NCBI GenBank assembly: GCA_050618055.1
Contig: JBNLVK010000172.1
Location: forward strand, 14,644-78,643
Length of the DNA stretch: 64,000 bases
DNA from: Myxococcota bacterium
GTDB taxonomy: Bacteria; Myxococcota_A; UBA9160; SMWR01
Reading direction: 5' to 3'
Of this stretch, positions 47,283-56,665 are shown piece by piece. A program made the position numbers and the translations under genes. Position 1 is the first letter of the stretch. Each line of letters starts with the position of its first letter. Under the pieces are notes generated by a model. That model had not been told where the DNA came from. It searched no databases and was given only the letters and a program-made list of their open reading frames with translations.

Positions 47283-48323
47283 TCAGCCCAGGCTCTGGCT
47301 CTGCTCCTGCACCGGCGGGCGGTGGGACGGATCGTGGGCGATGCGCACCGTGTGGCGCAGCGCCTCGATGGGCGGGTCCAGGTAGTCCTGGTGGATCGCC
47401 TCACACAGCTCCGCGTTGGTGTCGACGATCCAGGTGAGCGTCTTGTGCACGCCCCACTCCTGCACGTCCTCGACGTCCATCTGCACCAGCTGACCGCGGA
47501 AGCGCTCGAGCAGGTCCCAGGAGCTGCGCCGCGTGCCCGCTGCCTCCTCGCCGCGCAGGCGGATCAGCAGGCCGCGGGTGCGGTCCAGGTTGTGGAGCAC
47601 CGAGCGCGGGAAGGTGCGGTCGAGGATCAGGAAGCCCGCCACCGACGGACCCGAGAGCACGTGGGCGCTGCGCTTGAAGAACGGCTCGAAGGCCGAGCAG
47701 GAGCGCAGGATGGCCAGCCACTGGGCGGCGTCGACCGTCGTCTCGCTCTCGCCGGGCGCGTCGCCCAGCGCGTGGTGCTTCACGTCCAGGATGCGCGCCG
47801 TCTGGCCCACCCGCTCGACCGCGCGGCCCAGCTTCATGAAGACGAAGGGCTCCTCGTGGAGCATGGTCGAGTAGCAGATGCCGTGGAACAGCATGCACTG
47901 CTTGCACAGGTAGTCGTAGAAGGCGGCGCGATCCTTGTGGTAGAGGCGCTCGGCCTGCCGGTCGCGCAGCCACAGCCACAGGTCGTTGATCGACTCCCAC
48001 ATCTCCACGCTCATCGTCTCGCGGATCGTTCGTGCGTTCTCGCGGGCCCAGCGCATGGAGGAGAAGATCGAGGCGGGCGCCTCCGGATCCCAGGTGAGGT
48101 AGGACTGCACGGCCTCCGGGTCGTCGATGGCGCCGGCGCCCACCTGCTCGATGAAGTGCTCCTCGGCCCCGCTCACCACCACCAGCGGCCGCCAGCGCTC
48201 GGCCGACGGCAGGTCGGCGTCGAGCTGGAAGGCCTCGTTCACCTCGAGAAGCCGCGCCAGCGTGTCGACCCGCTCCAGGTAGCGGGTGAGCCAGAAGCAC
48301 GAGTCGGCGACGCGGGAGATCAC
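47283..48323 (-). CDS. alpha-E domain protein (DUF403)
   Basis: This is the 3' part of track ORF 47283..49922. GTG at 48323 forms a GTGA overlap with the upstream stop. Sequence [25 protein letters not shown]...[27 protein letters not shown]. 346 aa. Confidence 0.85.
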
Positions 48324-49789
48324 GGCTGGCGCTCCCCCACCACCCAGGTGTCCTTGGAGCCGCCGCCCTGGCTCGAGTTCACCACGTAGGAGCCCTTGGT
48401 CAGCGCCACGCGGGTGAGCCCGCCGGGCAGCACCCAGGTGGAGTCGCCGGACAGCACGAAGGGCCGCAGGTCGACGCGCCGCGGACCCACGCCGTGCCGC
48501 GTCCAGGTGGGCACGGCGGACAGCTCGACCAGCGGCTGGGCGATGTAGTTGCGCGGGTTCTCGGCGATGCGGTCGTGGAACTCTGCCCGCTCGCGGCGCG
48601 ACGCCTTCGGCCCCATCAGCATCCCGTAGCCGCCCGACTCGTTCACCGCCTTCACCACCAGCTCGTCCAGGTGCTCGAGCACGTAGCGCCGGTCGTCCTC
48701 GCGGTCGCAGATGTAGGTGGGCACCTGCGGCAGGATCGGCTCCTCGGAGAGGTAGAAGCGGATCATGTCGGGCACGTAGGGGTAGATGCCCTTGTCGTCG
48801 GCGATGCCGTTGCCGATGGCGTTCACGATGGCCACGTTGCCCTTGGCGTAGGCGGCGACCAGGCCCGGCACGCCCAGCATGCTGTCCGGACGGAACCACT
48901 GCGGGTCGAGGAAGTCGTCGTCGACGCGCCGGTAGATCACGTCGACGCGGCTGGGTCCCCGGGTGGTCTTCGCGTAGACCCGGTCGTCCTCGACGAACAG
49001 GTCGCTGCCCTGCACCAGCTCGCAGCCGACGCGCCGCGCCAGGAAGCTGTGCTCGAAGTAGGCCGAGTTGAACGGACCCGGCGTGAGCACGACCACGTGC
49101 GGATCGGACCCGCCGCCCGGCGCCACCGCCGCCATCATCTCGCGCAGCTTCGTCGGGTACATCTCGATGGGCGCCACCGCGCTCTCGCGGAAGACCGGCC
49201 CGAACACCTTCTTCATCATCATGCGGTTCTCGAGCACGTAGGAGACGCCGGACGGCGTGCGCACGTTGTCCTCGAGCACCAGGAAGCCGCCGTCGCGTCC
49301 GCGGATCAGGTCGACGCCGGCGATGTGGATGTAGACGCCCTTGGGCGGCTGGATGCCCTGCATCTTGGGCTGGAAGGCCTTGCTGCTCTCGACCATGAAG
49401 CGCGGAACCACGCCCTCTTCGACGATGCGCTGCTCGCCGTAGACGTCGTTCAGGAACAGGTTGAGCGCGCGGATGCGCTGCACCAGTCCGCGCTCGACCT
49501 GCTGCCACTCCTGGGCGGACACGATGCGCGGAATCAGGTCGAAGGGGAAGATGCGCTCGGTGTCGGTGTCGTCGCTGCCGTACACCGAGAAGGTGACGCC
49601 GCTGCGCAGGAAGGTGGTGTCGGCCAGCAGCTGGCGCCGGCGGAACTCCTTCGGGTCGAGGTCGCTCAGCAGGCGCACCACCGCCTCGACCGGCGGGTGG
49701 GGGGTTCCGTCGGGGCCGAAGAACTCGTCGAAGGTTCCGGGGAGCGGTTCGTAGCCCTCGAAGAGTCTGGAGGATCGGGACTGGACCAC
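48320..49789 (-). CDS. circularly permuted type-2 ATP-grasp protein (DUF404/DUF407)
   Basis: 489 aa. Motifs [44 protein letters not shown] and GGYGMLMGP. Confidence 0.9.
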
Positions 49790-55739: not shown

Positions 55740-56665
55740 TGCTGTACGCCCTGCGCCACCGGACCACCTACGAGTACAGCGACACGGCGGTGATCTCCCA
55801 CAACCTGGGCCACCTGCTGCCGCGCAGCTCGGAGCACCAGACGCTCCACAAGCTGGAGCTGGGCATCGATCCGAGCCCGGCGGCGGTGCAGTGGCACCGC
55901 GACTACTTCGGCAACGACGTGGTGTTCTTCGCGCTCCAGCAGCCCCACGAGCGGCTGGTGGTGAACGCCGAGAGCCGGGTGGAGGTGAAGCCGCGCGCGG
56001 CGCTGCGCCTCGAGGCGTCGCCACCCTGGGAGGAGGTGGTGGAGAGCGTGCGGCGGGGACGCGACGACGCGTCGCTGGCGGCCTACGAGATGGTCTGGGA
56101 GTCGCCGTTCGTCTCCACCGGTCCCGACTTCGCCGACTACGCGCGCGCCGCGTTCACGCCGGGCCGGCCCCTGGCCGAGGCGCTGCTCGACCTGAACGCG
56201 CGCATGCACCGCGAGTTCCGCTACGACCCGGAGGCCACCACCCTGGCCACGCCCATCGAGGAGGTGCTGGCCCAGCGCCACGGCGTCTGCCAGGACTTCG
56301 CGCACCTGATGATCGGCTGCCTGCGGTCGCTGGGGCTGCCGGCGCGCTACGTGAGCGGCTACCTGAAGAGCGCCGAGCCGAAGAAGAAGCAGGAGAAGCA
56401 GAAGCAGGCGGCCGCCGGCGAGGCCGACCTGGTGGGATCCGAGGCCTCCCACGCCTGGGTGTCCGCCTGGTGTCCCGCCAACGGCTGGATCGACGTGGAC
56501 CCGACCAACGACGTGGTGCCCTCGGAGCGCCACGTGGTGCTGGCCCACGGCCGCGACTACGACGACGTGAGCCCGCTGAAGGGCGTGACCCTCGGCGGGG
56601 GCGGCCACACGGTGACCGTGGCCGTGTCGGTGCGGCCGGTGGAGGAGGTGGAGGCCTCCGCCTGA
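55739..56665 (+). CDS. transglutaminase-family protein (small form, intact Cys-His-Asp)
   Basis: GTG at 55739 overlaps the upstream TAG by 1 nt. Sequence LYALRHRTTYEYS, with HGVCQDFAH and SHAWVSAW...DVDPTN. 308 aa. Confidence 0.88.
   Translation: MLYALRHRTTYEYSDTAVISHNLGHLLPRSSEHQTLHKLELGIDPSPAAVQWHRDYFGNDVVFFALQQPHERLVVNAESRVEVKPRAALRLEASPPWEEVVESVRRGRDDASLAAYEMVWESPFVSTGPDFADYARAAFTPGRPLAEALLDLNARMHREFRYDPEATTLATPIEEVLAQRHGVCQDFAHLMIGCLRSLGLPARYVSGYLKSAEPKKKQEKQKQAAAGEADLVGSEASHAWVSAWCPANGWIDVDPTNDVVPSERHVVLAHGRDYDDVSPLKGVTLGGGGHTVTVAVSVRPVEEVEASA

Follow-up and report, generated by a model that had tools for sequence, protein, structure and literature searches.

Cluster architecture

A 64,000-nucleotide stretch of DNA from an uncultured Myxococcota bacterium (GenBank assembly GCA_050618055.1, contig JBNLVK010000172.1, positions 14,644 to 78,643; this whole 64-kb stretch is called the window below) carries a divergent cluster of five genes that, as far as can be judged from the encoded domains, would provide two different kinds of ATP-driven amide-bond ligases and two cysteine amidases. 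An initial annotation of the window had described these genes as flanking a 101-nt divergent gap and as encoding circularly permuted ATP-grasp (cpATP-grasp), alpha-E and transglutaminase/DUF2126 proteins, a cpATP-grasp::alpha-E fusion and a small transglutaminase. A listing of open reading frames (ORFs) with their translations recovers all five at the same coordinates and on the same strands, and strong Pfam matches bear out each of the domain calls. The features, together with the short names used throughout, are the following (aa, amino acids; nt, nucleotides).

47283..48323, minus strand: E1, stand-alone alpha-E protein, 346 aa; PF04168, E=9e-82
48320..49789, minus strand: A1, predicted stand-alone cpATP-grasp ligase, 489 aa, GTG start; PF14403 (CP_ATPgrasp_2), E=9e-170, and PF04174, E=8e-149
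49790..49890: divergent intergenic region between A1 and T1D, 101 nt
49891..53241, plus strand: T1D, transglutaminase::DUF2126 protein, 1116 aa; Bact_transglu_N, Transglut_core and DUF2126
53238..55739, plus strand: A2E2, cpATP-grasp::alpha-E fusion, 833 aa, TTG start; CP_ATPgrasp_2, E=2e-159, and Alpha-E, E=2e-62
55739..56665, plus strand: T2, small transglutaminase-like protein, 308 aa; PF08379, E=3e-24, and PF01841, E=5e-22

Every gene of the cluster either overlaps a neighbour (by 4, 4 and 1 nt) or borders the single 101-nt divergent gap. Namely, A1 and E1 share a 4-nt GTGA, the stop of T1D and the start of A2E2 share a TTGA, and A2E2 and T2 overlap by 1 nt, just as initially described; the NCBI annotation has the same 833-aa form of the fusion (P0241). 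Within each arm, A1-E1 on the minus strand and T1D-A2E2-T2 on the plus strand, such spacing suggests translational coupling. What is more, the G+C content at third codon positions reaches 0.93-0.99 in the predicted frame of all five genes (0.96-0.99 for A1), to be compared with 73% G+C for the window overall, so that the five genes are coding far beyond chance.

Proteins 100% identical to E1 (P0001), T1D (P0121) and A2E2 (P0241) are found at NCBI, all on one 80.7-kb contig of an uncultured Myxococcota metagenome-assembled genome (MAG). Their names there are 'alpha-E domain-containing' for E1, 'DUF2126 domain-containing' for T1D and 'circularly permuted type 2 ATP-grasp' for A2E2. No NCBIfam model covers any of the five cluster proteins. 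Within the window, the paralogous domains share 40% (A1/A2), 27% (E1/E2) and 30% (T1/T2) identity, which indicates that the two copies are ancient paralogues rather than the outcome of a recent duplication. None of the five proteins has a signal peptide-like N-terminus upon inspection by eye.

Predicted ligase, alpha-E and transglutaminase modules

Both A1 and A2 cover the full length of the cpATP-grasp profile in Pfam, and A1 matches PDB entry 3N6X by sequence with E=1e-171. In A2E2, the cpATP-grasp domain spans approximately residues 1-485 and the alpha-E domain approximately residues 504-814, and the AlphaFold2 (AF2) model of the fusion has a predicted local distance difference test score (pLDDT) of 81 and a predicted template modelling score (pTM) of 0.79. 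For the ATP-grasp half of this model, Foldseek gives 3N6X, a structural-genomics entry, as the top match (template modelling score, TM, of 0.82), followed by the fungal E-64 ligase Cp1B, human, plant and yeast glutathione synthetases, homoglutathione synthetase, E. coli YgiC, glutathionylspermidine synthetase/amidase (GspS) and trypanothione synthetase (TryS), at E=1e-8 to 1e-4. All functionally characterised enzymes among these matches are small-molecule carboxylate-amine ligases. For alpha-E, no PDB neighbour was found, be it by sequence or by Foldseek with the alpha-E half of the A2E2 model.

The A-E pairing that marks the predicted system is present in both arms, as had been noticed initially: E1 overlaps A1 by the 4 nt mentioned above, and E2 is fused to A2. 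Both A-E copies look functional, since A1 retains 86 of the 120 residues that are invariant in the A2 family and E1 retains 25 of the 40 that are invariant in the E2 part of the A2E2 family. In particular, E1 keeps most invariant residues of both Arg/Glu ('ER') motifs, that is, the R, E and R of the first and the G and E of the second, with the first Arg of the second motif replaced by Ala. The alpha-E family to which E1 belongs comprises 4,704 clusters at 50% identity (E<=1e-3), and in two proteins of 632 and 643 aa (P0366 and P0369; 54% and 48% identical to E1, respectively) alpha-E is fused to a transglutaminase.

T1D consists of a transglutaminase-like domain (approximately residues 1-275) followed by DUF2126 (residues 277-1112), and its match to PF09899 (DUF2126) extends over 826 of the 826 profile positions (E=0, 1322 bits). 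It has at least 8,000 homologues, with about 66% identity across phyla among the matches listed, and the 120 listed homologues share its architecture at 66-87% identity. Both transglutaminase-like domains keep the Cys-His-Asp triad attributed to them from the outset, namely C180 (in GSCRD), H229 and D245 in T1D, which are invariant in 31 homologues, and C184 (in GVCQD), H238 and D254 in T2. The AF2 model of T1D is poor (pLDDT 60), and with it Foldseek finds relatives, 3ISR and TgpA, for the transglutaminase domain only; the relatives of T2 in the PDB are 6G49 and 3ISR.

According to its published assignment (PMC2588565) and its Pfam description, DUF2126 is a carboxylate-amine ligase with a glutamine-synthetase-like fold. 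On these two sources, it would be a putative second ligase whose fold differs from that of ATP-grasp, and, with DUF2126 so assigned, the ligase modules of the cluster would number three. When 31 members were scanned against Pfam at relaxed settings, no link of DUF2126 to glutamine-synthetase-like families emerged. Four motifs that are invariant in DUF2126 come in the same order as the catalytic motifs of GlnA from E. coli, which is suggestive, albeit no proof of a shared fold; they pair up as follows.

Motif 1: GGEPTF in T1D (starting at residue 330) with GPEPEF in GlnA (EPEF at 130)
Motif 2: residues 716-731 of T1D with KPMFGDNGSGMH in GlnA (NGSGMH at 265)
Motif 3: NTHRAEF in T1D (827) with NRSASIR in GlnA (339)
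Motif 4: LELRAFE in T1D (851) with IEVRFPD in GlnA (EVRF at 358)

Recurrence of the five-gene block

A scan with A1 of one genome per GTDB species yielded 69 loci, onto which the window proteins were then mapped by tblastn. The complete five-gene set is found at five of them, in divergent (L001, L002), co-directional (L011, L012) or convergent (L062) orientation. The closest relative, L001, is a Myxococcota MAG with 66-84% identity and the same divergent layout as in the window. This layout is also seen in L002 and L003, with 58-79% identity to the window proteins; both are labelled as uncultured Spirochaetales MAGs, a label that may reflect binning errors or gene transfer. In the planctomycetes L011 (Fuerstiella) and L012 (Planctomicrobium sp. 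SH668), the order is A1-E1-T1D-A2E2-T2 in one direction. In L012, a complete genome, the block is located at approximately 813,100-822,600 of NZ_CP195793.1, with spacings of 70, 129, 30 and -4 nt between its genes and with opposite-strand genes on either side, and from this layout the five genes of Planctomicrobium sp. SH668 appear to form one operon. The convergent L062 is a gammaproteobacterial MAG, and in the Acidobacteriota MAG L065 the set is present up to the end of the contig; contig ends cut the sets of both L003 and L065. In L065, approximately 5 kb with five ORFs and no Pfam matches (2300-7100) separate A1 from E1.

Taken over these loci, the adjacency spans Myxococcota, Planctomycetota, a gammaproteobacterial MAG and an Acidobacteriota MAG, that is, at least four phylum-level lineages in three orientations. 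The initial annotation had looked to gene neighbourhoods for a verdict on the cluster, and there the five-gene set indeed recurs as a block in several phyla, be it divergent, convergent or co-directional. In 10 of the 69 loci, no more than 10 kb separates T1D from an A1-type gene; for a single-copy gene and a genome size of approximately 5 Mb, chance would be estimated to give about 0.3 such loci. In a neighbour-joining tree, A1 and A2 form two deep clades, and the A1 genes of the five-gene loci are polyphyletic within the A1 clade. With these genes scattered among other A1 genes, the five-gene association must have been assembled or retained repeatedly.

Every five-gene locus has exactly two A, two E and two T domains and one DUF2126, and at none of them does the A1-E1 pair come with a transglutaminase of its own. 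This census, together with the fully co-directional arrangement in Planctomycetota, lends comparative support to the earlier suggestion that the minus-arm pair shares the transglutaminases of the plus arm. In particular, the planctomycete order can be read as one A-E-T triad after another, with DUF2126 attached to the first T, and by that order the N-terminal domain of T1D is the likely partner of A1-E1.

Other loci show both parts of the set and variations on it. Prochlorococcus and Microbacteriaceae have A-E-T triads, L060, L063 and L075 have T1D-A2E2-T triads, and L073 has T1D by itself. In the Myxococcota loci L005, L008 and L010, T1D stays beside A1-E1 with differing accessories. A class-II glutamine amidotransferase of the Ntn-hydrolase type (GATase_4) and a small transglutaminase adjoin A1-E1 on the opposite strand in the L004-L010 group, upstream in L004-L008 and downstream in L009/L010; the two are fused in L010 (7013-8812, minus strand), and GATase_4 is apparently a separate gene in L004-L009. 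Fusions link every component of the system: A::E and T::DUF2126 in the window, E::T in P0366 and P0369, and GATase-II::T in L010. Anbu, a proteasome homologue, is encoded in L004, L005, L008, L015, L033, L062 and L063, and follows T1D in L005 and L008. Finally, the gene right after T2 in L001, in the same orientation, encodes a type III glutamine synthetase (GSIII_N and Gln-synt_C; 628-3099, minus strand); unlike in L001, no glutamine synthetase gene follows T2 in the window.

Published work on relatives

A full-text search of the literature found no established substrate, product or phenotype for the ATP-grasp/alpha-E/transglutaminase/DUF2126 system, in agreement with the initial annotation, whose attribution of the system to predictions of the Aravind group also proved correct (PMC2588565; Iyer et al. 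2009, as cited in PMC6376114, PMC5666114 and PMC3495828). In these predictions, Rv2566-type proteins were recognised as transglutaminase and carboxylate-amine ligase fusions expected to act in peptide formation, the DUF2126 family was first found by searches seeded from the Pup ligase PafA, and no Pup-like ORF was seen in DUF2126 gene neighbourhoods (PMC2588565). According to the summary given in PMC3495828, the ATP-grasp enzymes were predicted in 2009 to make peptide tags and the transglutaminase-like peptidases to undo them.

The closest experimental work concerns relatives. The ATP-grasp protein of an Anbu operon releases phosphate from ATP, and Anbu itself showed neither peptidase activity nor a complex with the operon proteins, the authors calling the hypotheses unconfirmed (PMC6376114). 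Upon expression of the Mycobacterium tuberculosis cpATP-grasp proteins Rv2411c and Rv2567, no gamma-aminobutyric acid (GABA)-trehalose was made (bioRxiv 10.64898/2026.04.15.718621). For Rv2569c, a role as a secreted protease of the serine type has been claimed, its activity being blocked by inhibitors of serine proteases but unaffected by E-64 or N-ethylmaleimide (NEM) (PMC11081392).

As for regulation, the Burkholderia cenocepacia genes I35_5080-83, which encode a cpATP-grasp, an alpha-E, a transglutaminase and a large transglutaminase protein, are among the strongest NtrC/sigma-54-dependent genes, with transcripts 6- to 9.4-fold lower in an ntrC mutant (PMC5491218). Pseudomonas putida PP_2685 and PP_2688 are induced on nitrate relative to ammonium (PMC8050072), a sigma-54 site has been predicted upstream of a Bradyrhizobium cpATP-grasp gene, and in marine metagenomes the abundance of the domains co-varies with that of urea-metabolism domains (PMC3597751). 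In published transcriptomics, the link to nitrogen limitation is consistent across species.

Intergenic region and genomic surroundings

The promoter role of the 49790-49890 gap is one that the gene layout suggests. The gap has no sigma-70-like consensus, and its alignment with the corresponding regions of L001-L003 shows almost no conservation. Over the whole window, the sigma-54 pattern TGGCAC-N5-TTGCW has 169 matches with up to 3 mismatches, to be compared with a mean of 195 in shuffled sequence. One sigma-54 candidate picked by eye, TGGGCGGGTTTCCGCA, was rejected, as it is not conserved in L001. No Rfam family was found anywhere in the window, and the search for terminators returned a single weak terminator-like hairpin, inside E1, and no convincing terminator in or around the cluster.

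The initial annotation had noted that the minus arm lacks a transglutaminase gene of its own, a pyrroloquinoline quinone (PQQ) dehydrogenase coming next after E1, and that neither Anbu nor a small precursor-peptide ORF is to be seen. On all of these counts it was right. The dehydrogenase, located 30 nt past E1, is as follows.

45270..47252, minus strand: PQQ beta-propeller dehydrogenase with a signal-peptide-like N-terminus; PF01011, E=2e-229

No gap inside the cluster exceeds 101 nt, which is too short for a precursor-peptide gene, and tblastn with the L008 Anbu as the query gave no match in the 64-kb window, Anbu being a frequent, if optional, member of the system. No GATase-II homologue is present in the window either. 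Beyond the PQQ dehydrogenase, on the minus-arm side, the next gene encodes a beta-lactamase-fold protein, and on the plus-arm side a Sel1-repeat protein gene begins 23 nt past T2. The PQQ dehydrogenase, beta-lactamase-like and Sel1 genes were considered as parts of the system and rejected, since tblastn found no homologue of any of them at the 69 related loci, which places all three outside the unit. The window holds a second PQQ dehydrogenase gene (254-2152, minus strand), whose product is 50% identical over 645 aa to that of 45270-47252.

A second, unrelated predicted amide-ligase system occupies three contiguous genes (37329-41011, minus strand) approximately 6 kb from the cluster:

39854-41011, minus strand: AstE/AspA-like deacylase
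38270-39853, minus strand: transglutaminase core fused to 7TM_transglut
37329-38267, minus strand: RimK-like 'sugar-transfer associated' ATP-grasp

A neighbourhood of this composition, with an ATP-grasp, a membrane transglutaminase and a peptidase, has reportedly been described by the Aravind group. Elsewhere in the window, 41092-41781 (plus strand) encodes a staphylococcal-nuclease homologue, probably secreted, with a C-terminal Excalibur calcium-binding domain, and over 58000-64000 the G+C content drops from approximately 0.74 to 0.64-0.68, such that this part may be a different genomic segment; among its ORFs, one (60735-62135) ends in a MazG-like domain and several match nothing in Pfam.

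Proposed mechanism

Building on the domain content, gene coupling, co-conservation and fusions described above, we infer a chemistry, a small-molecule substrate and, in this organism, a role under nitrogen limitation. Namely, the interpretation that we favour, and to which we would give about even chances, is that the five genes work together in the cytoplasm as a single unit, building amide bonds on a shared substrate and breaking them again, probably when nitrogen is limiting. This substrate would most likely be a small peptide or an amine/carboxylate metabolite. Each cpATP-grasp would activate a carboxylate with ATP, as the acyl-phosphate, and would then couple it to an amine, as its structural relatives glutathione synthetase, glutathionylspermidine synthetase and E-64 ligase do. 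Alpha-E, fused to the ligase in A2E2 and to a transglutaminase in relatives, would be an obligate partner subunit and may present the substrate or regulate the ligase. DUF2126 would act as a second ligase of the glutamine-synthetase or gamma-glutamylcysteine-ligase type, adding a further amide, such as a gamma-glutamyl-type bond, and the two transglutaminase-like domains would hydrolyse or transfer the resulting amide bonds, giving a cycle of ligation and hydrolysis. Comparable logic is found in the PuuA/PuuD gamma-glutamylation route of polyamine catabolism. A1-E1, with no transglutaminase gene of its own, would use the transglutaminase domain of T1D across the divergent gap. We also count the type III glutamine synthetase that follows T2 in L001 toward the link with nitrogen.

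That said, a number of observations speak against this interpretation. To begin with, the preference for a small molecule over a protein as the substrate is one that the structural neighbours, and they only, would suggest. Then, the ligase assignment of DUF2126 is unconfirmed by the tests with the structural model, with PDB profiles and with hhalign: neither a profile search nor Foldseek with the T1D model (pLDDT 60) gave a PDB match for DUF2126, and the hhalign probabilities, 0.2% against YbdK and 2.5% against GlnA, are insignificant. What is more, T1D stands alone in L073 and A-E pairs without T1D exist elsewhere, so the parts can work separately. Finally, the nitrogen link comes from Proteobacteria and marine metagenomes only; in the window itself, no nitrogen gene was found adjoining the cluster, and the 49790-49890 gap has 0 matches to TGGCAC-N5-TTGCW at up to 3 mismatches.

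Alternative explanations

Would the same set of genes be better understood as a system acting on proteins? In the original proposal of the Aravind group, the ligases add an amino-acid or peptide tag to target proteins and the transglutaminase-like peptidases remove it (PMC3495828, PMC6376114, PMC5666114). The tag could be, for example, Glu or poly-Glu, as with the tubulin TTL enzymes, placed on side chains or termini, and Anbu, where present, would degrade or process the tagged proteins, perhaps recycling nitrogen. The physical linkage of Anbu to T1D in L005, L008, L062 and L063 fits this proposal, as does the discovery of the DUF2126 family through PafA-seeded searches (PMC2588565), and induction under nitrogen limitation would agree with greater protein turnover. 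Although it is the strongest of the alternatives, we consider protein tagging unlikely. Namely, neither Anbu nor a small tag gene is present in the window or at the other five-gene loci, with the exception of Anbu in L062; published neighbourhoods lack a Pup-like ORF (PMC2588565); Anbu has been found without peptidase activity and without a complex with the operon proteins (PMC6376114); and the characterised structural neighbours of the ATP-grasp domain all act on small molecules. A variant of the idea takes the block as a self-contained protein-modification machine, in which a peptide or gamma-glutamyl tag would be put on under nutrient stress by the three ligase modules, with their two folds, and edited or removed by the two papain-fold enzymes, with alpha-E recognising the targets. 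To this, too, we would assign a low probability; were it true, it would constitute a third bacterial protein-tagging chemistry beside pupylation and ubiquitin-like systems.

Another way to read the presence of two ligase folds and hydrolases at one locus is that the product is a storage polyamide, analogous to cyanophycin or poly-gamma-glutamate, with the two ligases alternating in the extension of the polymer and the transglutaminase-like hydrolases depolymerising it. Cyanophycin synthetase, indeed, combines an ATP-grasp with a second ligase domain, and nitrogen-regulated expression is seen in relatives. However, the direction of this regulation is wrong, as induction under nitrogen limitation is the opposite of building a nitrogen store. 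Moreover, no conserved primer, export or granule genes lie nearby at the 69 loci, and our literature searches turned up no such polymer for the Pseudomonas, Mycobacterium or Prochlorococcus carriers. We regard a storage polymer as quite improbable.

One could also argue that there are two independent systems, the A-E pair and the T1D-A2E2-T2 triad, placed back to back by chance or local rearrangement and uncoupled from each other. Each set does occur alone elsewhere (the A-E-T sets of Prochlorococcus and Microbacteriaceae, the triads of L060, L063 and L075, the solo T1D of L073), M. tuberculosis presumably carries both at separate loci, and the intergenic region is not conserved. Against this stands the adjacency of the two sets in at least four phylum-level lineages and three orientations, including a co-directional five-gene block, as well as the lack of a transglutaminase proper to A1-E1 in all five-gene loci; what is more, L005, L008 and L010 keep T1D beside A1-E1 despite their differing accessories. 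Such independence is hardly to be expected, in our view.

Lastly, that T2 is a secreted broad-specificity protease, as claimed for Rv2569c, and the cluster not a ligation system, strikes us as very improbable indeed, since the Rv2569c activity, which inhibitors of serine proteases block and E-64 and NEM do not, misfits a Cys-His-Asp papain-fold enzyme, T2 lacks a signal peptide and would be translationally coupled to cytoplasmic ligases, and the family occurs in free-living marine and soil bacteria.

Novelty and significance

The locus is a genuine, well-formed member of a system already predicted in 2008-2009, and not a new kind; it adds no new component of its own. What is new here, if modest, is the recurrence of the five-gene block across phyla and orientations, its reading as triad and triad, and the chain of fusions linking every component. 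The families concerned are widespread, with carriers including Mycobacterium tuberculosis, Pseudomonas, Burkholderia and Prochlorococcus, and more than 15 years have gone by with no substrate or product in the literature. If an ATP-driven cycle of amide ligation and hydrolysis under nitrogen limitation, as favoured here, were true, it would supply a missing piece of bacterial nitrogen economy and would also explain the purpose of Anbu. For experiments, the practical handle is Planctomicrobium sp. SH668, which is cultured and fully sequenced, whereas the locus of an uncultured MAG does not by itself make the system more testable.

Comparison with known systems

The Anbu operon (Pseudomonas aeruginosa, Yersinia bercovieri, P. 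putida PP_2685-2688; Valas & Bourne 2008, Iyer et al. 2009) has the same three families, in the order A-E-T and with tight coupling; its ATP-grasp hydrolyses ATP (PMC6376114), and it is induced by nitrogen limitation (PMC8050072, PMC5666114). In contrast to it, the window lacks Anbu, possesses a second, fused A::E copy and the 1116-aa transglutaminase::DUF2126 protein, and has an A1-E1 pair without its own transglutaminase.

In M. tuberculosis, we take Rv2567 to be an A::E fusion, Rv2569c a small transglutaminase-like protein and Rv2411c-Rv2409c a split A-E-T set. Whereas the sets are there, as we understand it, at separate loci, in the window they stand back to back and the split set is without its T. 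Rv2566 is the archetype of the T1D-type family (PMC2588565), and T1D has the architecture of approximately 1100 aa that goes with it. In B. cenocepacia H111, I35_5080-5083 (BCAM1233-1236) offer an A-E pair co-regulated with a T1D-type protein (PMC5491218). That form differs from the present one in having four genes, one A-E pair with its own small T, no A::E fusion, and control by NtrC/sigma-54, of which the window gave no promoter evidence.

A more distant likeness is that to pupylation (PafA/Dop/Pup/proteasome). DUF2126 belongs to the carboxylate-amine ligase superfamily of PafA according to PMC2588565; pupylation pairs a ligase with a reversing amidase, as the cluster would, and relatives of the cluster are linked to the proteasome homologue Anbu. 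The cluster differs in being without a Pup-like small gene, a proteasome and an AAA ATPase, and in that its reversing enzyme would be a papain-fold, transglutaminase-like protein instead of a Dop-type ligase homologue.

Finally, E. coli GspSA, YgiC, trypanothione synthetase and eukaryotic glutathione synthetase have an ATP-grasp fold related to that of A2 (Foldseek E=1e-8 to 1e-6), at an identity of only 10-14%, such that substrate residues are not transferable. This group has neither an alpha-E partner nor DUF2126, and the amidase of GspSA is a CHAP domain and not a transglutaminase-like domain with Bact_transglu_N. In its logic, GspSA nevertheless comes close to what we propose for the cluster, as an ATP-dependent ligase forms the amide there and a papain-like Cys amidase undoes it.

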